A stretch of DNA of 12,966 nt, taken from the UHGV virus genome UHGV-0144896. One strand, given 5' to 3'. The translations under genes were made by a program, and so were the position numbers. The notes under the pieces were generated by a model. That model saw only the letters and a program-made list of their open reading frames with translations, was not told the origin of the DNA and searched no databases. Position 1 is the stretch's first letter. The number at the start of each line of letters is the position of its first letter. The stretch comes from a virus. This document shows positions 504 to 12,725 of this stretch, one piece after another.

Positions 504-676
504 TTCCTCGCACGATGTCTTAGCCACCGGATATCCCACAGGTGAGCCGTGTAGTTGAAGGTTTTTACGTCAGATTCTTTTGGGATTGGCTTGCGTTTAT
601 TTCTGGAGCGTTTCGTTGGAAGGTATTTGCAGTTTTCGCAGATGATGTCGGTGATACTTCGTCGCTGTCGTCTCAT
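500..676 (-). CDS. ninE: NinE-like small basic protein (58 aa)
   Basis: Not in the ORF track (<60 aa). ATG at 676..674 overlaps the NinC stop as ATGA. Translation is [58 protein letters not shown], ending at TGA 502..500. Matches my recollection of lambda NinE. Confidence 0.55.
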
Positions 677-1518
677 GCAGCATCCTCAAAATTAAATCCA
701 AGCTGACATGAAAATGCTTCACATGATTCAGAACACGAACCTGAATCATACTGTCGCATTGATGTCATTCTTGAGGCTAACTCATCTCTTGATATATCAC
801 TAAACAAGGCAATCAGTGATTTAAGTGTATTATTCCCTCGATACATAACCGGTTCCTTTCCTGTTTTTATTTCTGTATCAAGGATGTTGATAAATGCATC
901 TGCAAGTTCTGGCTCATCCATGGCTGCCAGCGCCACCTTTTGCATACTTTTTTTTATGCAGAAAACACAATTACCAAGATGCTCCTGTATGCCAAGATCA
1001 AACTTCTGCTCACTCCACCAATCAAGCACATCCTGTTTTTCAAAATCGCTTATATCAGCCAGGTACCGAAAACCATTAGCCCTTTTAAGCCTGTTTGGTT
1101 CATCTGTGCGAATGCCAAGCCATGTGATGAAATTTCCTTTCCCAAACTTTTCCTGACAATATTTGGTGAATGGAACAGACTTCATTCTGTCGGTACAGAA
1201 CGCACCGCCGATATATGGATGTCCGTATTTATTCAACATCCTTTTCCACGGTATAAGATCTGGACCAATATCATTGACACCTATCTCTTCATAACTACTG
1301 GCCTTCCCCATTTCTGGATTAGGTATTACACGAAGGCAATGTAAGTCTATTTTCCAGTTACTGACGATATTTCGGATGAACTCATATGTTTTAGGGTGCT
1401 CTGCCCCTGTATCCATGAAAACGTAATGCACGTCTTCACCTGCCTGTCGCTTTTGCTCCATTAGCCAGAGCAAATATGCTGACGTCCTGCCACCGGAGAA
1501 ACTAACGACATTTATCAT
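673..1518 (-). CDS. ninC: NinC-like protein, PAPS reductase / adenine-nucleotide alpha-hydrolase family
   Basis: Track ORF 673..1578, trimmed to the ATG at 1518..1516, which overlaps the NinB stop as ATGA. N-terminus [17 protein letters not shown] carries a PP-loop SGGxxS motif typical of the PAPS reductase family. Size (281 aa) and position after ninB match lambda NinC (orf290). Confidence 0.7.
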
Positions 1519-1955
1519 GCAGCCCTGTCTCCCCATCTCGCTTTCCACTCCAGAGCCAGTCGCGCTTCGTCTGACCACTTAACGCCACGTTCTGTACCGA
1601 ATGCCTGTATAAGCTCTAATAGCTCCGCAAATTCGCTTACACGCATCCTGCTGGTTGACTGGCCTATTACCACAAAGCCATTCCCGGCAAGGTTAGGAAC
1701 AACGTCCTGCTGCTTTAATGCTGCGGTAAACACACACTTCCAGCTTTCTGCATCCAGCCAGCGACCATGCCATTCAACCTGACGAGAGACGTCACCAAGG
1801 CAAGCCCAAAGCTTCCGATTCTGGTCTAAGCTGCGGTTGCGCTCCTGAATGATCACTACGATTGGCTTGGTTGGGTCTGGAAGAATTTGCTGTACCGCGT
1901 GAATAGCGTTTTGCTGATGTGCTGGAGATCGAATTTCAAAGGTTAGTTTTTTCAT
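1515..1955 (-). CDS. ninB: NinB recombination protein (Orf-family recombination mediator)
   Basis: Track ORF 1515..1973 begins at a TTG; the first ATG is at 1955..1953 and is preceded by a strong SD (GGGAGAGGGAAG). This gives 146 aa starting MKKLTFEIRSPAHQQNAIHAVQQILPDPTKP, which matches lambda NinB (orf146) closely from memory. Confidence 0.85.
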   Translation of the reverse strand: MKKLTFEIRSPAHQQNAIHAVQQILPDPTKPIVVIIQERNRSLDQNRKLWACLGDVSRQVEWHGRWLDAESWKCVFTAALKQQDVVPNLAGNGFVVIGQSTSRMRVSEFAELLELIQAFGTERGVKWSDEARLALEWKARWGDRAA

Positions 1956-4646: not shown

Positions 4647-4943
4647 TTAAAATTCCATCTGGATTTGTTCAGAACGCTCGGTTGCCGCCGGGCGTTTTTT
4701 ATTGGTGAGTCCATCAAGCGCATACTTAAAAGCCCTGCTAATCGGACTGATGTCTGATGCCATTCCGAAAGCACACAAGACCGAAGCAATAAATCTCCAG
4801 TCCGTTCTGCTTATCTTCGATTCATGACAGCCAATCATCTTTGCCAGACCGCGCTGGGTAAGCGTTGACAGGTTGATGAGTAAATCAGTTTCAGCGCGAT
4901 CAATTTCTCGCTGTGTTGGCTTGCTGTAGCTTGCTTGTGCCAT
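4647..4943 (-). CDS. cII: Transcriptional activator CII (lambda cII / P22 c1 homologue)
   Basis: 98 aa. C-terminus LTNKKRPAATERSEQIQMEF matches the lambda CII C-terminus from memory. Central HTH-like segment TQRGLAKMIGCHESKISR. AGGAAA SD upstream of ATG 4943. Confidence 0.8.
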   Translation of the reverse strand: MAQASYSKPTQREIDRAETDLLINLSTLTQRGLAKMIGCHESKISRTDWRFIASVLCAFGMASDISPISRAFKYALDGLTNKKRPAATERSEQIQMEF

Positions 4944-4976
4944 TTGTTAATTTTCCTATATTGATATTGAGTTATA

Positions 4977-5001
4977 GCGGCACACCCAATGGATTTGCCG
5001 C
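4977..5001 (-). terminator. Hairpin in the tR1 position (possible rho-dependent terminator)
   Basis: 6-bp perfect stem (gcggca / tgccgc) with a 13-nt loop between nutR and the cII start. No U-tract follows on the minus strand, so any termination would be rho-dependent as for lambda tR1. Weak call. Confidence 0.3.
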
Positions 5002-5011
5002 TGATGTTTGC

Positions 5012-5052
5012 TCACCCGGTTAGAGGTGAAAGGCCAGAACTGTTAAAGAGCA
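5012..5052 (-). promoter_or_regulatory. nutR site (boxA plus boxB hairpin), phi21-type
   Basis: Minus-strand boxA TGCTCTTTAACA (5041..5052) lies immediately downstream of the cro stop. It is followed by a hairpin tcacc-TCTAACCG-ggtga (5012..5029) that shares the CTAACCG loop with the nutL hairpin at 6160..6179. Confidence 0.55.
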
Positions 5053-5058
5053 ATTTGC

Positions 5059-5244
5059 TTATGCCGCTTGGCGGTAAGCACTTTCTTGATACTTCAGGGC
5101 GCCAGCTGTAACGATTTCCAATCGATAGGCGTCTTTCTCTGGGATAACTTCTTTCCACTGAGAGACTGCTGCATCGCTAATGCCTAGTGCTTTAGCAACA
5201 GCACGCTGGGTTCCGAAGTGGTCAATAACATCTTTTTTGTACAT
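5059..5244 (-). CDS. cro: Cro repressor, P22-type
   Basis: 61 aa, MYKKDVIDHFGTQRAVAKALGISDAAVSQWKEVIPEKDAYRLEIVTAGALKYQESAYRQAA. Near-identical to my recollection of P22 Cro. HTH QRAVAKALGISDAAVSQW. Divergent from the repressor gene. Confidence 0.85.
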   Translation of the reverse strand: MYKKDVIDHFGTQRAVAKALGISDAAVSQWKEVIPEKDAYRLEIVTAGALKYQESAYRQAA

Positions 5245-5324
5245 AGACTCGCTCCGAAATTAAAGAACACTTAAATTATCCACCAAAGGAATCTTAAGTC
5301 AAGTTTATTTAAGATGTCTTAACT
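5245..5324. promoter_or_regulatory. OR operator region with divergent PR / PRM promoters (P22-type operators)
   Basis: Three 18-bp sites fit the P22 operator pattern ANTNAAG-N4-CTTNANT: 5259..5276 (attaaagaacacttaaat, perfect palindrome), 5282..5299 (accaaaggaatcttaagt, one mismatch) and 5307..5324 (atttaagatgtcttaact). The last abuts the repressor ATG. Confidence 0.7.
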
Positions 5325-5975
5325 ATGAATACACAACTGATGGGTGAGCGTATTCGCGCTCGCAGAAAAGAACTCAAGATTAGGCAGGCTGCCCTTGGCA
5401 AGATGGTTGGCGTGTCTAATGTTGCTATTTCCCAATGGGAGCGATCTGAAACTGAGCCCAATGGCGAAAACCTATTGGCCTTAGCCAAGGCTTTGCAGTG
5501 CTCCCCTGATTACCTGTTGAAAGGAGAGGATAGTCTTTCAAACATTGCCTATCACAGCAGGCATGATCCAAGAGGTTCGTATCCTCTAATTAGTTGGGTA
5601 AGCGCAGGATGTTGGATGGAAGCTGTAGAGCCATATCATAGGCGTGCAATAGATAACTGGTACGACACAACGGTAGATTGTTCTGAAGACTCTTTTTGGC
5701 TCGATGTTAAAGGCGACTCAATGACTGCCCCGGCAGGACTGAGTATTCCTGAGGGGATGATTATTCTCGTCGACCCAGAAGTCGAACCACGTAATGGAAA
5801 GCTGGTAGTCGCCAAACTTGAAGGAGAAAACGAGGCGACATTCAAAAAGTTAGTTATTGATGCCGGTAGAAAATTCCTGAAACCACTCAATCCACAATAC
5901 CCAATGATTGAAATCAATGGGAACTGTAAAATCATTGGCGTTGTCGTTGATGCCAAGCTAGCAAACCTTCCTTAA
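5325..5975 (+). CDS. c2: Prophage repressor C2 (P22 c2-like), LexA/S24-type self-cleaving repressor
   Basis: 216 aa. N-terminal HTH (QAALGKMVGVSNVAISQWERSE) and a C-terminal S24 peptidase-like domain with GDSM (Ser) and a downstream Lys. Very similar to P22 C2 from memory. Confidence 0.9.
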   Translation: MNTQLMGERIRARRKELKIRQAALGKMVGVSNVAISQWERSETEPNGENLLALAKALQCSPDYLLKGEDSLSNIAYHSRHDPRGSYPLISWVSAGCWMEAVEPYHRRAIDNWYDTTVDCSEDSFWLDVKGDSMTAPAGLSIPEGMIILVDPEVEPRNGKLVVAKLEGENEATFKKLVIDAGRKFLKPLNPQYPMIEINGNCKIIGVVVDAKLANLP

Positions 5976-6289: not shown

Positions 6290-6595
6290 ATGGTAACCAT
6301 TGTCTGGAAAGAATCCAAAGGTACGGCAAAAAGCCGCTACAAAGCTCGCAGAGCAGAACTTATTGCCGAGCGACGCAGTAATGAAGCACTGGCGCGAAAA
6401 ATTGCGCTAAAGCTCTCTGGTTGCGTCAGAGCAGACAAAGCAGCATCACTAGGAAGCCTTTGCTGCAAGAAGAAAGAAGAAGTCGTTCGAAAAAATAGAA
6501 GTATTTATTACAAGGATTCAAACCCATTAGGAAACAAAATACATGCAGTCCAAAAAATAAAATTGTACAGTAAACCACCGTACGGTGCTTATTGA
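6290..6595 (+). CDS. N: Antitermination protein N (phi21-type arginine-rich motif)
   Basis: Track ORF 6260..6595, trimmed to ATG 6290 with an AAAGGAG SD 6 nt upstream. The N-terminal arginine-rich motif GTAKSRYKARRAELIAERR matches the phi21 N boxB-binding peptide as I recall it. ~101 aa, first gene after PL/nutL. Confidence 0.75.
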   Translation: MVTIVWKESKGTAKSRYKARRAELIAERRSNEALARKIALKLSGCVRADKAASLGSLCCKKKEEVVRKNRSIYYKDSNPLGNKIHAVQKIKLYSKPPYGAY

Positions 6596-6597
6596 GT

Positions 6598-6936
6598 ATG
6601 CTTATGGTGAAAAAGACTATTTATGTTAATCCCGACCACGGACAAAATAGAAAAGTATCTGATAGAGGTCTTACATCTCGAGACAGGAGGAGAATAGCGA
6701 GATGGGAAAAGAGGATAGCATATGCATTAAAAAACGGTGTAACACCTGGCTTTAATGCTATAGATGACGGTCCTGAATATAAGATTAATGAAGACCCAAT
6801 GGACAAAGTTGACAAAGCATTAGCAACACCATTTCCTCGCGATGTTGAAAAAATTGAAGATGAAAAATATGAGGATGTAATGCACAGGGTTGTTAACCAC
6901 GCTCACCAACGAAATCCAAATAAAAAATGGTCATAG
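6598..6936 (+). CDS. Hypothetical hydrophilic protein (~113 aa), AT-rich accessory gene
   Basis: Track ORF 6592..6936 starts at a TTG; the first ATG is at 6598, another at 6604. No clear SD, so it may be coupled to the N stop at 6595. Visibly more AT-rich than the flanking genes and followed directly by a strong terminator. No family recognised. Confidence 0.5.
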   Translation: MLMVKKTIYVNPDHGQNRKVSDRGLTSRDRRRIARWEKRIAYALKNGVTPGFNAIDDGPEYKINEDPMDKVDKALATPFPRDVEKIEDEKYEDVMHRVVNHAHQRNPNKKWS

Positions 6937-6958: not shown

Positions 6959-7072
6959 TGTCTGAACTAACCGAATTTACTACAGCAAACCACGCAGTGA
7001 AATGGGCGTGACTTGTGTTGGTCGCCAGAAAATGAAATTAGGCAGCAAACCACTTATTTGAGAGGAATTAAT

Positions 7073-7696
7073 ATGTCATCAATCCGCTTAACAACGAGTA
7101 TGAAAGAGAAAATCGCTCGTAACGCTTTAATTAAATCTGGGGTTTTCACTGAGCTTGAAGAAGTAACAAAGTTAAAGAACCAGCTTGCACTTGACGCCAG
7201 AGTTGTTGTGTTTGGCGGTAAAAAGAAAACTGAGGAAGTGGATCAGTTATCATCCAAGTTAATGGCTATAAGCGAAGAACTTGAAAAGCTGGGATGTTCA
7301 TTTTACTCATGCGATGCCCGTTCAACTTCAATTTATCTGACTGTATCTGGCAGAAGGGTTGGCTGGTATTCATATGGGAAAGACGGCAACGGCGAAGATA
7401 TATTGCTCCCTACTCCGACCAAAGATAAATGCATGTTTAGCGCAGAACACGAAATAACAAAAAGGTTTGATGAAATCTGCGCATTGCAACAAAAACTTGA
7501 AGCCAAGAAAAAGGATATCGAATCAAATGTATGGGCTGCTTTGAACTCAGTCACAACAGTTAAGCGACTTATTGAAGTTTGGCCTGAAAGCAAAGAGTTG
7601 CTACCAAAAGAAGCAGATAAAGCAAGTACAGCACTTCCTGCTTTACGGGTAGAAGATTTGAATAAGATGATTGGACTTCCTTCCGAGGTCGCATAA
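7073..7696 (+). CDS. Hypothetical protein (207 aa), AT-rich accessory gene in the PL operon
   Basis: Track ORF 7013..7696, trimmed to ATG 7073 with a GAGG SD 7 nt upstream. Hydrophilic, lysine/glutamate-rich, with no obvious transmembrane segment, so it is unlikely to be SieB. Bracketed by terminators at 6937..6958 and 7831..7856. No family recognised. Confidence 0.5.
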   Translation: MSSIRLTTSMKEKIARNALIKSGVFTELEEVTKLKNQLALDARVVVFGGKKKTEEVDQLSSKLMAISEELEKLGCSFYSCDARSTSIYLTVSGRRVGWYSYGKDGNGEDILLPTPTKDKCMFSAEHEITKRFDEICALQQKLEAKKKDIESNVWAALNSVTTVKRLIEVWPESKELLPKEADKASTALPALRVEDLNKMIGLPSEVA

Positions 7697-8359: not shown

Positions 8360-8448
8360 AGGTGTTCGCGTCTTTTTAAATGCGGCAAAGACTGAAGTAT
8401 TAAATCAGCGTTATTTCCTTGGGCCATGCCCATTCTGAGAACAAACAT

Positions 8449-9054
8449 ATGAGCAAAGAATTTTACGCAAGACTGGCAGCTATTCAGGAGAACTTGAACG
8501 CGCCAAAGAATCAGTACAACTCATTCGGTAAATATAAATACAGAAGCTGCGAAGACATTCTTGAAGGAGTTAAGCCGTTACTGAATGGCCTGTTTTTATC
8601 AATCAGCGATGAAGTTGTGTTGATTGGTGATCGGTATTACGTGAAAGCAACGGCAACTATTACCGATGGCGAAAACAGTCATACGGCAACCGCACTAGCA
8701 CGAGAGGAAGAAAGCAAGAAAGGAATGGATTCTGCACAAGTTACGGGAGCTACAAGCTCTTATGCACGCAAGTATTGCCTCAATGGTTTGTTCGGCATTG
8801 ATGATGCGAAAGATGCAGATACAGACGAGCATAAACATCAGCAGAACGCAGCAGCAAAGCAATCAAAACCATCACCTACATCTGAACAGGTTCTAAAAGC
8901 ATTCACTGACGCAGCAATGCAGAAAAACACCGTAGAAGAGCTTAAACAGGCGTTCGCCAAAGCGTGGAAGATGCTCGAAGGCACACCGGAGCAGCACAAA
9001 GCGCAGGACGTTTACAACATCAGACGAGGCGAATTAGAAGGAGCGGCAGCTTAA
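8449..9054 (+). CDS. erf: Erf-family single-strand annealing recombinase (P22 Erf-like)
   Basis: Track ORF 8419..9054 begins at a TTG; the first ATG at 8449 gives MSKEFYARLAAIQENLNAPKNQYNSFGKYKYRSCEDILEGVKPLL, close to P22 Erf from memory (~201 aa). The alternative start at 8419 cannot be excluded. Confidence 0.8.
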   Translation: MSKEFYARLAAIQENLNAPKNQYNSFGKYKYRSCEDILEGVKPLLNGLFLSISDEVVLIGDRYYVKATATITDGENSHTATALAREEESKKGMDSAQVTGATSSYARKYCLNGLFGIDDAKDADTDEHKHQQNAAAKQSKPSPTSEQVLKAFTDAAMQKNTVEELKQAFAKAWKMLEGTPEQHKAQDVYNIRRGELEGAAA

Positions 9055-9437
9055 TGGCACATTCGATTACTGTAAGACTAAACAAGCCCGCAAGAGAGTT
9101 TCAGGCCGGGGAAAATATCGGATTCAACATCCGTGCTGGCGTTCAGTATTACGATCGCCAGACAAAAAAGAAAGAATGGACAAACTACAGCGCCGTTGTA
9201 TTTGCCAAGCCGGGAGCGCAAGTGGATTACTACCGTAGTGTTCTTGTTGAAGGTGGCATTGTTGAAATTACCGGAGAAAACATCAGGGTTGATGTTTATC
9301 AGGGGCAAAATGGTCAATCAATCACTCTTGAATTACTGAATGCAAAGATTGGATTTGCAGCTTCAGGAAATGGCCCGCAGCAGCAAAGTAGTAACCAGCA
9401 GAACACTCCTGTATACGACGATTCCATCCCATTCTGA
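9054..9437 (+). CDS. SSB-like protein with C-terminal acidic DDSIPF tail (127 aa)
   Basis: Track ORF 8964..9437, trimmed to ATG 9054, which overlaps the erf stop as TAATG. The C-terminus ..NTPVYDDSIPF matches the canonical SSB tail (DDDIPF), preceded by a Gln/Gly-rich linker and a ~100-aa probable OB-fold. Confidence 0.5.
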   Translation: MAHSITVRLNKPAREFQAGENIGFNIRAGVQYYDRQTKKKEWTNYSAVVFAKPGAQVDYYRSVLVEGGIVEITGENIRVDVYQGQNGQSITLELLNAKIGFAASGNGPQQQSSNQQNTPVYDDSIPF

Positions 9438-9460
9438 TTCAGAAAAATAAGGATTTAATT

Positions 9461-9754
9461 ATGCCAGCGCCTCTGTATGGTGCGGATGACCCGCGCCGCT
9501 GTTCCGGCAATTCCGTATCGGAGGTGCTGGATAAATTCAGGAAAAACTACGACCGGATAATGTCTCTACCGCAGGAAACGAAAGAGGAAAAGGAATTTCG
9601 CCATTGTATATGGCTTGCAGAGAAAGAAGAACGCGAGAGAATTTACCAGACATCAATCCGACCATTCCGCAAAGCCACATATACCCACTTCCCTGAAATT
9701 GACCCGCGCCTGCGTAATTACCGCTCACGCTATGGCGCTATCAGTAATGACTGA
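9461..9754 (+). CDS. abc2: Anti-RecBCD protein, Abc2-like (97 aa)
   Basis: AAGGA SD upstream of ATG 9461. [26 protein letters not shown]... matches my recollection of P22 Abc2 in sequence and size, and sits downstream of erf as in P22. Unverified. Confidence 0.5.
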
Positions 9755-9764
9755 GGAATTTACC

Positions 9765-9932
9765 ATGAGAGGACTTGCATACAATCCCGGCATTCTTCCG
9801 GCAGAAATGATTATTCGCCAACGCGTAAAGCCAATGCCATCGAGAGAGGAATTACTTAAGCGAAACTCGCTTCCATCAGTGAATCAGAACAAATATCTGA
9901 ATGCGATGTGGCGCAAAGGAGGCAACCAGTGA
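9765..9932 (+). CDS. Small hypothetical protein (55 aa)
   Basis: In frame with track ORF 9615..9932. ATG 9765 has a GAGGAA SD. Its stop overlaps the GTG start of the next gene (GTGA). Confidence 0.4.
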
Positions 9933-10372
9933 GCGAAATTAACTATCAGGCACTGCGCGAGGCGGCAGAGAAAGCAACGTGTGGTGTGTGGTCGCTCGAA
10001 TATGGAGATGGCCGATTTGATGGTGATGATGCACTAATTCATCGCGATGCTGCTGGATATGTTCCCATTTGCAGAATTGAAGGAGCGCATCCTGAAAGCG
10101 GTTTCGATGAAGATTTCCAAATGGAACAGCAGGCCAATGCTGAATTCATCGCTGCAGCCAATCCGGCTACCGTCTTAGCTCTGCTGGGCGAGCTGGAAAC
10201 AGCAAAAAAGCGCATAGCAGAACTGGAGGTGCGGGAAATACTGCTCCCGGAACGTAGCAGCATGCTTCATCGAACAGATTTTCACGATGATTACCAAACG
10301 GTAATGGCATACAAAGTTTCTGAAGTCATCGATGCAATCCGCGCTACTGGCATTCGCATCAAAGGAGAGTGA
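9929..10372 (+). CDS. Ead/Ea22-like family protein
   Basis: Track ORF 9908..10372 starts at a GTG. I prefer GTG 9929, which has a strong AAGGAGG SD (9916..9922). N-terminus ..[27 protein letters not shown] is the motif I associate with Ea22-like proteins of E. coli prophages. The start choice is uncertain. Confidence 0.55.
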
Positions 10373-10373
10373 T

Positions 10374-10889
10374 ATGGCGTTAACACACCACGAACTCTGT
10401 CAGATTGCGTACAAGTTCCTTAAGCGCAACGGGTTCAAGGTTTGCTTTCATGACCGCTTTGTTGCTGTAACCAGTACCGGAGAACAGCCAGATGCTATGG
10501 GATTCAGAAATTCAGCATCATGCCTGATAGAGGCGAAGTGTTCTCGTGCTGATTTGTTGGCAGATAGAAAAAAGCGTTTCCGTAAAAATCCCTCACTTGG
10601 CATGGGCGACTGGCGATTCTTTATTAGTGAGCCGGGGATTATTTCAATTGAGGATTTACCACCTGGCTGGGGATTACTTCACGTTGTTAACGGAAGAGTA
10701 CGGAAAGTACATGGGTGGCCAAAGGGCAATTGCTGTTGGGGTAATCCTGACGATAAGCCATTTACTGGAAATAAGCAGGTTGAATGCGATTACATGTTAT
10801 CTGCATTAAGGCGCATGGAGTTGAGAGGGCACCTTAATGAAATATATGACGGTGTAATTGTTAATAAGAAAGAAGGAAACGCGGCATGA
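10374..10889 (+). CDS. Hypothetical protein with candidate PD-(D/E)xK nuclease motif (171 aa)
   Basis: Track ORF 10332..10889, trimmed to ATG 10374 directly after the upstream stop (GAGAGTGATATG, SD-like). Contains ..QPDAMGF..(14 aa)..LIEAKCSR, i.e. PD...ExK spacing typical of restriction-endonuclease-fold nucleases. Possibly MmcB-like. Confidence 0.5.
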   Translation: MALTHHELCQIAYKFLKRNGFKVCFHDRFVAVTSTGEQPDAMGFRNSASCLIEAKCSRADLLADRKKRFRKNPSLGMGDWRFFISEPGIISIEDLPPGWGLLHVVNGRVRKVHGWPKGNCCWGNPDDKPFTGNKQVECDYMLSALRRMELRGHLNEIYDGVIVNKKEGNAA

Positions 10890-11527
10890 CCACTATTACC
10901 AAAGAGCGACTGCTGACAATCAAGCAGTGGCGCGAAACATACGGACCTGGTAGCAACGTTGTACTGCCAGCAGAAGAAGCGGAAGAACTGGCACGAATTG
11001 CTCTGGCATCGCTGGAACGCGAACAGATTCGCCACGAGCATGCCAAATGGTCTGACTCCACATTTGGCTGCGTTGGCCCCATTGGTCCACTGAAACACCT
11101 CTCAAAAGAGGCTCTGGAAGCCGCAGCCGAACCTGACGATCTCAGCGAGTGGGCTGATATGCAGTTCCTGTTGTGGGATGCACAGCGCCGTGCTGGCATC
11201 AGCGATGCTGAAATTACCGCTGCTATGGAAGATAAATTGAAGATCAACATGGAGCGCCAGTGGCCTGAGCCAAAAGATGGTGAGCCTCGCTTGCACATTA
11301 AAGAACCCGGCAACTCTCCGGGAACTCCGGATAGTTGGATAAGCTGTAGTGAGCGAATGCCGGAAGAAACGGGTGACATTATTGTTGTTTCGGATGGCAT
11401 TGTAATGTCAGGGATTTCTTATTCTCGTCGTGACGGGTTCTATATGGCCGCATTGGAGTACGACGACGACGAACCAATTGACGGTGTAACCCACTGGATG
11501 CCGCTGCCAGAACCGCCGCAGGGGTGA
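10886..11527 (+). CDS. Two-domain phage protein (DUF550-like N-terminus, DUF551-like C-terminus)
   Basis: 213 aa. ATG 10886 overlaps the upstream stop as ATGA. The C-terminal segment SCSERMPEE..GDIIVV...THWMPLPEPP resembles the DUF551 pattern common in enterobacterial prophages. Domain names are from memory. Confidence 0.55.
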   Translation: MTTITKERLLTIKQWRETYGPGSNVVLPAEEAEELARIALASLEREQIRHEHAKWSDSTFGCVGPIGPLKHLSKEALEAAAEPDDLSEWADMQFLLWDAQRRAGISDAEITAAMEDKLKINMERQWPEPKDGEPRLHIKEPGNSPGTPDSWISCSERMPEETGDIIVVSDGIVMSGISYSRRDGFYMAALEYDDDEPIDGVTHWMPLPEPPQG

Positions 11528-11593
11528 AATGATGCTTGGCCTGAAGTATTTTATGTAATTGGTATTGCTATATTTTTATCTGGGGATAAACGA

Positions 11594-11836
11594 ATGTTCT
11601 CTCTGATTCAACGTGGTCAGATATACACCGATAGCGCTGGCTATCCAGTAAAAATCATTCGTAGTACTGATCACTCAGTATTCTTCAAGAGGATGGATGG
11701 CTATCCTGGAAGAGTGTGCATCAGAAAATTCAATAATTTATTCGAACACATTGATCACAGAGAATATCACCAGATCCTGGCTGAAACAGAGCAGGAGAAC
11801 CATCTGAAAAAATTACGTGCCATGCAAAGGAGATAA
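11594..11836 (+). CDS. Small hypothetical protein (80 aa)
   Basis: Track ORF. Preceded by a TGGGGATAA motif that recurs upstream of the next gene. No family recognised with certainty. Confidence 0.45.
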   Translation: MFSLIQRGQIYTDSAGYPVKIIRSTDHSVFFKRMDGYPGRVCIRKFNNLFEHIDHREYHQILAETEQENHLKKLRAMQRR

Positions 11837-11924
11837 ACCGGTAAAGGTGTTCGCGATAAAGGTGAATATCGGCAATGAATAACAATCCTCGAACTCGCGG
11901 GGATTTCTTTTATATGGGGATAAT

Positions 11925-12725
11925 ATGACCATCCACTTTCACGGCAGCCCAATATGGGGGGATGAGCATGCCCCTACAGATATGCTGATTAAAGCCCTTT
12001 ACCGTGATGGTGGGGCTTTTGTTTCATTTGCCAGACCAGAGCAGATGAAAAAGATTGCCATGTTCCCTTGTGATATACGCCTTGATAACGGCGCTTTTAG
12101 CGACTGGATGAAAGCATTAAAGAAAGGCACTCCGGTAGACTGGAGTAAGAGACGAGCAAAATTCTACGACTTTGTTGGGAAGTGGTTCAGCAGAATTGAA
12201 TGGTTTCTTATACCTGACGTTATCGAAGGGACAGAGGCAGAAAACGACGAGCAGATTGAGTTGGTTCCTGATTGGCTAAAATCAAAAGCGGTTCCGGTCT
12301 GGCATACCGACGAATCAATTGAACGTCTTTTACGCCTTTCTAGCAAATTTGAATGGGTGGCGATTGGATGCTGCGGACCACACAGGCACATACGCTCTAA
12401 ATGGTGGGAACAGAGAATGGATGAAGTTTTCACTGAGCTTTATATCAATCGTAATTTGAAAGTGAAAATTCATGGTCTTCGAATGCTCGACGTGAGAGTT
12501 CTTGGTATGTATCCGTTCGCCAGTGCGGATTCTACTAATGTTGCTGTTAACGTACCGAAGACAGAGAAGCGATTTCCTGAGATTACCGACAAACTGGCAC
12601 GCACAGCTGTACTTCGCGCTGCTATTGAAAAGGTGCACCCGCCATCGATATCAGCATGGGTAGACAGAAAGATGAGAGAGCCGGCGCAAGCCGGTTTTTT
12701 ATTTGAATTCACCGACGCCGCTTAA
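11925..12725 (+). CDS. Hypothetical protein (266 aa); tentative TGT-fold (DpdA-like DNA-guanine transglycosylase) candidate
   Basis: Track ORF with a GGGGA SD-like sequence upstream. Several short motifs occur in the same order as catalytic motifs of bacterial tRNA-guanine transglycosylase: RDGGAFVSF / LDNGAFS (cf. TDSGGFQVF), AIGCCG (cf. AVGGLAVG), KIHGL (cf. YLMGVG) and FASADSTN (cf. MFDCVMPTRN). There is no C-terminal zinc domain. The product assignment is speculative. Confidence 0.6.
   Translation: MTIHFHGSPIWGDEHAPTDMLIKALYRDGGAFVSFARPEQMKKIAMFPCDIRLDNGAFSDWMKALKKGTPVDWSKRRAKFYDFVGKWFSRIEWFLIPDVIEGTEAENDEQIELVPDWLKSKAVPVWHTDESIERLLRLSSKFEWVAIGCCGPHRHIRSKWWEQRMDEVFTELYINRNLKVKIHGLRMLDVRVLGMYPFASADSTNVAVNVPKTEKRFPEITDKLARTAVLRAAIEKVHPPSISAWVDRKMREPAQAGFLFEFTDAA

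Follow-up and report, generated by a model that had tools for sequence, protein, structure and literature searches.

A small early protein of a lambdoid prophage with a predicted PD-(D/E)xK nuclease fold is placed next to MmcB

We analysed a gene in a 12,966-nucleotide stretch of viral DNA (UHGV virus genome UHGV-0144896, hereafter the window), which is part of a lambdoid prophage. The gene encodes a 171-aa protein whose predicted structure has the PD-(D/E)xK (restriction-endonuclease-like) fold and which carries a complete, invariant acidic/lysine active site made of D/E27, E37, D40, E53, and K55. Judged from sequence comparisons, its family is placed as a divergent sister family of MmcB within the PD-(D/E)xK superfamily, and not as a member of MmcB as Pfam defines it. 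With a probability of roughly 60%, we consider the protein to be a small DNA endonuclease of this sister family, made of a single domain, dependent on a metal (probably Mg2+), and serving phage DNA replication, repair, or recombination. There is nothing unusual about a PD-(D/E)xK nuclease in the early operon of a phage, and it makes no new kind of system; the novelty lies in recognising a very large family that had no annotation and in placing it beside MmcB.

Results

Gene boundaries and position in the pL operon

The open reading frame on the + strand (Table 1) is genuine and translates into 171 aa plus a stop. Its start at ATG 10374 was preferred over an in-frame ATG at 10332 because of the position of the AGGAG sequence, because the N-termini of the homologues coincide at M1 in an alignment of 30 sequences (A1), and because the dominant cluster, of 171-aa proteins, has 1363 members, whereas the 185-aa form has 20. 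The first two of these points led us to reject the 185-aa reading that would begin at ATG 10332. Two minus-strand ORFs, 10448-10603 and 10790-11098, overlap the gene, and the frame conserved in all homologues is the one on the + strand.

Genes on the + strand of the window run in the order cI, Nun-like, Nmad5 ('nucleotide modification associated domain 5'), cIII, kil, erf, SSB-like, abc2, Ead/Ea22-like, and the nuclease-fold gene, beyond which come a DUF550/DUF551 gene, a DUF4222 gene, and a DpdA-like gene. The - strand carries cro, cII, the replication genes, and ninB. This arrangement therefore puts the gene in the pL operon, and the early-left setting proposed in the initial annotation is borne out by the cI-to-Abc2 genes found upstream. 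The gene is expressed as one cistron of this early operon and occupies part of the variable accessory region that separates the recombination genes from xis/int. As a separate observation, the first of the long pL-operon genes gave a match to a Nun-like transcription termination factor and not to a lambda N-type antiterminator.

Both flanking genes had been named from the sequence as Ea22-like (upstream) and DUF550/551-like (downstream), in agreement with their Pfam matches (Table 1). They had also been described as translationally linked to the nuclease-fold gene by overlapping stop and start codons. This holds downstream, where an ATGA at 10886-10889 makes the stop of the gene overlap the start of the DUF550/DUF551 gene. 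Upstream, the stop codon of the Ead/Ea22-like gene at 10370-10372 is followed by a 1-nt spacer and then by the ATG, and the junction is one of close coupling, not overlap. On the + strand, no promoter-like or terminator-like site was found from 9400 to 11880, which agrees with translation of the three genes by read-through.

Table 1. Features of the window and their coordinates, in nucleotides from its first letter
Feature	Coordinates	Strand	Remarks
PAPS-reductase-like gene	673-1578	-	phrog_33262
cI	5325-5975	+	
Nun-like gene	6592-6936	+	phrog_5632, E 2e-70
Nmad5 gene	7013-7696	+	
erf	8419-9054	+	
abc2	9461-9754	+	
Upstream Ead/Ea22-like gene	9908-10372	+	Pfam PF13935 (Ead_Ea22), E 6.8e-23
Mosaic module shared with phage P7	10220-11017	+	97% nucleotide identity; blastn of the window against P7
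Shine-Dalgarno AGGAG	10363-10367	+	Read from the sequence; 6 nt before ATG 10374
Gene for the 171-aa MmcB-like PD-(D/E)xK nuclease-fold protein	10374-10889	+	Stop included
Active-site codons E37-x2-D40 ... E53-x-K55	10482-10538	+	Strands beta2 and beta3; invariant in A1 and A2
Signature-helix codons S57-R-x-D60-x3-D64-x-K-K67-x2-R70	10542-10583	+	Common to MmcB; D60, D64, K67, R70 invariant in A2
Downstream dATP-dGTP_PPHyd (the 'DUF550' of the initial annotation) + DUF551 gene	10886-11527	+	PF04447, E 3.4e-42; PF04448, E 1e-15
DpdA-like gene	11925-12725	+	phrog_887 'queuine tRNA-ribosyltransferase', E 1e-102; no Pfam match

Active-site motif and its conservation

In the protein, PDAMGF occupies residues 39-44 and IEAK residues 52-55, which gives the motif D40-x12-E53-x-K55. 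The motif was thus present as first noticed, and the spacing of 14 residues given for it was slightly off. A D-x8-20-[DE]xK pattern appeared in 52% of 20000 composition-preserving shuffles of the protein and its PD version in 4%, so the bare D...ExK motif is not significant alone; it is conservation and structure that make it real. We looked at conservation in A1 and in a broader alignment of 108 sequences at 34-85% identity (A2). E37, D40, E53, and K55 were invariant in both, and the full set of positions invariant over the 108 sequences was E37, D40, E53, K55, D60, D64, K67, R70, G78, and R81. Among 147 representatives of 50% clusters, 142 had the D...ExK motif, the five exceptions including N-terminally truncated fragments. 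Conservation of the motif residues among homologues, on which the initial annotation had staked the nuclease reading, therefore extends to distant members of the family.

Predicted structure

An AlphaFold2 model computed from the 108-sequence alignment reached a pLDDT of 95.7 and a pTM of 0.89; it replaced an earlier, mediocre model (pLDDT 69.9) built from 30 close homologues. Its elements are alpha1 (5-18), beta1 (23-26), beta2 (41-45), beta3 (48-54), an alpha helix (58-64), and beta4 (80-85), after which come a beta hairpin and helices at the C-terminus, and these include the alpha-beta-beta-beta-alpha-beta core of the PD-(D/E)xK superfamily. In this model, D40 is predicted at the start of beta2 and E53-x-K55 at the end of beta3, which is the classical PD-(D/E)xK geometry. 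The best solved structural match of the model was the MmcB-like protein SPO1766, so that the fold anticipated from the motif was recovered in a confident prediction. When viral models were searched with Foldseek, phage proteins named 'MmcB-like' or 'MmcB family DNA repair' were matched at E 3e-8 to 6e-7.

Relationship to MmcB and Hjc

Searched as a single sequence against Pfam, NCBIfam, PADLOC, and PDB sequences, the protein had no significant match: none at E<=1 in Pfam, none at E<=10 in NCBIfam, and none at E<=10 among the defence-system models of PADLOC-DB. Copies of the protein in databases are all named 'hypothetical protein', and in PHROGs it matched families of 'unknown function', plus a weak 'DNA repair protein' match (E 0.003). 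A literature search on Upf89.0, phrog_631, phrog_9263, and Cba120 orf107 found nothing.

The relationship with MmcB was detected with profiles. The structure 3dnx (SPO1766 from Ruegeria pomeroyi) represents Pfam PF06319 (DUF1052, now 'MmcB-like') (PMC3424549), and the profile of the family matched it at E 2.3e-5. A search of the protein database with a 53-residue fragment of 3dnx returned MmcB fragments only. For comparison, we drew on plasmid and chromid records, which supplied seven proteins or domains annotated as MmcB. When the alignments of the two families were compared with hhalign, they matched over 99 columns with a probability of 97.7% and an E of 2.2e-12. Both share the whole fold, as predicted for the protein, and the same order of elements, namely an acidic residue after beta1, D, E-x-K, S-x2-D-F-x2-D-x-K, beta4, and G-L-L, and the signature helix of the protein aligns with the S-x2-D-F-x2-D-x-K motif of MmcB and 3dnx. 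The residues invariant in the MmcB alignment (A3, S. meliloti numbering) are R50, D52, E66, K68, S70, D73, D77, K79, W80, Y83, C87, and G108. Eight of these 12 positions (D52, E66, K68, S70, D73, D77, K79, and G108) have identical counterparts in the protein, in order D40, E53, K55, S57, D60, D64, K66, and G100; the counterparts of R50, W80, and C87 differ in the family, and Y83 falls within a gapped stretch of the alignment. Homology to 3dnx and the hhalign match thus single out the MmcB-like repair protein among the three functional options offered in the initial annotation.

The two families nevertheless differ in several respects. Identity between the protein and MmcB is about 16-25%. G-E-x-P-D in the protein stands against G-R-R-x-D in MmcB, K67 against an invariant W, and G-D-x-R-F against C-D-x-F-Y-F, and the protein has, beyond MmcB, an extra conserved L-P-x-G-W-G-L-L and a K-P-F-x2-N-K-Q-x-E C-terminal region. 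Carriers differ as well, being mainly gamma-proteobacterial phages and prophages and Acidobacteriota for the family under study, and alpha-proteobacterial chromosomes for MmcB (PMC3424549). Weak matches to the Pfam MmcB-like model were obtained for 20 of the 108 family members (best E 2.9e-4), and an acidobacterial member scored 19.5 bits versus a Pfam cut-off of 22; none of the members tested reached the curated Pfam cut-off (PF06319). The family was placed as a putative sister of MmcB because homology is detectable but no tested member reaches the Pfam cut-off.

Like the protein, archaeal Hjc (PF01870) is a minimal PD-(D/E)xK domain, and its P-D ... E-x-K-S-R segment is similar. The protein might accordingly be a Hjc-type resolvase of Holliday junctions or branched DNA that completes Erf-mediated recombination. 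Weak Pfam Hjc matches were obtained for 41 of the 108 members (best E 1.3e-4), the family profile matched the Hjc structure 1hh1 at E 0.07, and the small, single-domain protein shares its operon in the window with Erf, an SSB-like gene, and Abc2. Against this, the structural similarity to Hjc is weak, and a match to the Hjc family model (PF01870) combined with close structural similarity was looked for and not found. Moreover, the lambdoid NinG/Rap, RusA, and YbcO proteins are, like the protein under study, small stand-alone phage nucleases of early operons, but their folds and families are unrelated to it; NinG or RusA genes adjoin the gene in some phages and co-occur with it, neither replacing the other. 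We therefore regard a Hjc-type resolvase as unlikely.

Spread of the family

At 95% nucleotide identity or more, the gene was found in 137 phage records, many of them Stx1- and Stx2-converting phages, and in P7 (upf89.0); it is present in 928 of 5426 complete E. coli genomes. At the protein level, 641 phage records matched, and an exhaustive profile search yielded 3281 cluster representatives (clustering at 50% identity), of which 2422 had E<=1e-10. Virulent phages and acidobacterial chromosomes are also among the carriers. Phage Cba120, which is virulent, carries its homologue, orf107, directly upstream of the gp61 primase gene, whose start orf107 overlaps, and in Vibrio phage vB_VpS_C2 the homologue lies between helicase and primase genes with abutting or overlapping junctions.

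Scanning bacterial genomes with the most distant members retrieved mainly chromosomes of Acidobacteriota (Terriglobales), where the homologue is full-length (32% identity, E 4e-26). Its neighborhood there is conserved and non-phage, with a CHAD/HD (Ppx-GppA-like) gene upstream in 33/80 loci and, convergent downstream, recR in 29/80, dnaX in 29/80, and an Ogt-like gene in 12/80. Because recR and dnaX run on the opposite strand, this synteny may be due to nothing more than common descent. Examples from this neighborhood lie at 5001-5567 of locus L118, 5942-6541 of L131, and 6995-8824 of L144.

Some homologues are fused to other domains. In one, a TniB/IstB-like AAA+ ATPase domain precedes the nuclease domain (P0136, 5001-6287 of L097, on one metagenomic contig); in another, the nuclease domain is followed by a DUF550 domain (P0217, 547-1278 of L096, on a single 2.2-kb metagenomic contig); a further one is fused, weakly, to DUF551.

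Neighborhood in temperate phages and mosaic exchange

Neighbors were surveyed, with a crude ORF caller, around homologues at 53-74% identity in 80 temperate viral contigs. Immediately upstream, Pfam identified NinX in five contigs, helicase domains in three, DUF551 in two, and Ea22 in two of the 80. The immediate downstream neighbors at 72 loci included NinG (4), DUF551 (4), dATP-dGTP_PPHyd (3), YbcO (3), and NinB (2), with RusA, SSB, and a methylase once each. By tblastn, within 4 kb of the homologues, NinB was detected in 14/80 contigs, DUF550/551 in 6/80, DpdA in 3/80, Erf in 1/80, and Abc2 in 0/80. The gene has no constant partner gene, and the co-occurrence with Erf and Abc2 that had been put forward for checking did not appear.

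The module shared with P7 (upf88.3-upf89.0-upf89.5) comprises the 3' end of the Ea22-like gene, the whole nuclease gene, and the 5' end of the downstream gene, with sharp breakpoints inside both the Ea22-like and the DUF550/DUF551 genes. Consequently, when the nuclease gene moves, it takes along the coding sequence for ~50 C-terminal residues of Ea22 and ~44 N-terminal residues of the downstream protein. The 97% identity, with breakpoints in both flanking genes, thus indicates that the gene moves as a mosaic cassette.

Variable accessory slots together with a mosaic cassette make a pattern that is also typical of defence, anti-defence, and exclusion genes. The protein could then be an offensive or defensive accessory nuclease that degrades host or competitor DNA, counters host defence, or acts as an effector of prophage exclusion or abortive infection. 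The position between the recombination genes and xis/int, the cassette shared between lambdoid prophages and P7, the want of a fixed partner, and the abundance in prophages of pathogenic E. coli would all suit such a role. Several observations argue otherwise. The protein matched no PADLOC defence model; exclusion by the prophage is disfavoured because genes of the pL operon are repressed in the lysogen; virulent phages keep the gene in their replisome operons, and bacterial chromosomes keep it near recR/dnaX; and its closest characterised relatives are repair proteins. The anti-defence option of the initial annotation found no positive evidence, given the PADLOC result and the occurrence of the gene inside virulent-phage replisome operons. 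Altogether, we give an offensive or defensive role a small chance.

The stop/start overlap raises another explanation, in which the protein would form a unit with the DUF550/DUF551 protein or with the DpdA-like modification genes, for instance by cutting unmodified DNA while its partner controls the nucleotide pool. The one DUF550 fusion and the weak DUF551 fusion, the downstream neighbors carrying DUF551 or dATP-dGTP_PPHyd, and the presence of DpdA-like, PAPS-reductase-like, and Nmad5 genes in the window speak for it. These associations are, however, a minority pattern at the 80 loci, the DUF550 fusion was seen on one short contig and a single sequencing error can fuse an ATGA overlap, and the homologues of virulent phages and Acidobacteriota occur without these partners. 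A unit of this kind is very improbable, and a link to the DpdA-like modification genes of the window was rejected on the count of 3/80 loci. Considered in their own right, the DpdA-like, PAPS-reductase-like, and Nmad5 genes suggest that the prophage has a DNA modification system of the 7-deazaguanine type, with its genes divided between the early-left and nin regions.

Discussion

We favour a stand-alone DNA endonuclease made early after induction for phage DNA replication, repair, or recombination, whose substrate and exact step we infer. A role in these processes is proposed because of the homology to MmcB and the known role of MmcB, and because of the contexts in which the family is found, namely primase/helicase genes, the nin region, the AAA+ fusion, and recR/dnaX. 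MmcB has been described as an SOS-induced PD-(D/E)XK endonuclease that shields Caulobacter from mitomycin C and cisplatin (PMC9578287), a role known for the Caulobacter protein only, and it has been proposed to act with translesion polymerases (PMC9578287; bioRxiv 10.1101/2022.06.10.495655). The phage protein would work alone, given that no partner gene is conserved beside its own. By analogy with MmcB, whose proposed action in Caulobacter is the incision of crosslink-damaged DNA, it may cut damaged or branched DNA arising in phage replication, recombination, or repair. In a prophage, its production would await induction and the start of replication, for which the template is often freshly damaged DNA.

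A narrower version of this endonuclease reading, which we offer tentatively and hold to be rather doubtful, is that of a widespread phage lesion- or fork-processing nuclease that rescues the replication of damaged or stalled phage DNA, as a phage counterpart of the MmcB pathway. Temperate phages that DNA damage induces (mitomycin C in the case of Stx phages) and virulent phages that have a replisome of their own may carry it for this purpose. If true, it would bring a counterpart of the MmcB pathway to hosts not known to have that pathway. At the other end, a catalytically dead fold acting only in DNA binding or regulation, as some PD-(D/E)xK folds are inactive (PMC3424549), is hardly credible, since the canonical catalytic residues are all invariant over thousands of divergent sequences, which would be the pattern of an active enzyme.

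Through its placement beside MmcB, the protein gains a testable annotation as a predicted metal-dependent DNA endonuclease whose catalytic residues would be E37, D40, E53, and K55. Its copies now go by 'hypothetical' in about one-sixth of complete E. coli genomes, in the matching sequenced Stx-converting phages, in P7, and in Ackermannviridae. The family also provides abundant, easily handled proteins for finding what MmcB-type nucleases cut.

Two groups of database entries carry other names. Salmonella entries of 240-252 aa called 'ead/Ea22-like family protein' (P0090, P0093, and P0101) have a Pfam Ead_Ea22 match and cover more than 90% of the protein; they are either real fusions of Ead_Ea22 with the nuclease or over-extended gene calls. 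Homologues from ~80-kb Vibrio siphoviruses (e.g. CAU_VPP01, 4929-5717) bear the label 'adenylosuccinate synthase'. These proteins are 262 aa long, give no Pfam match, and align through their N-terminal part with residues 5-170 of the protein, and the label was judged an annotation error.
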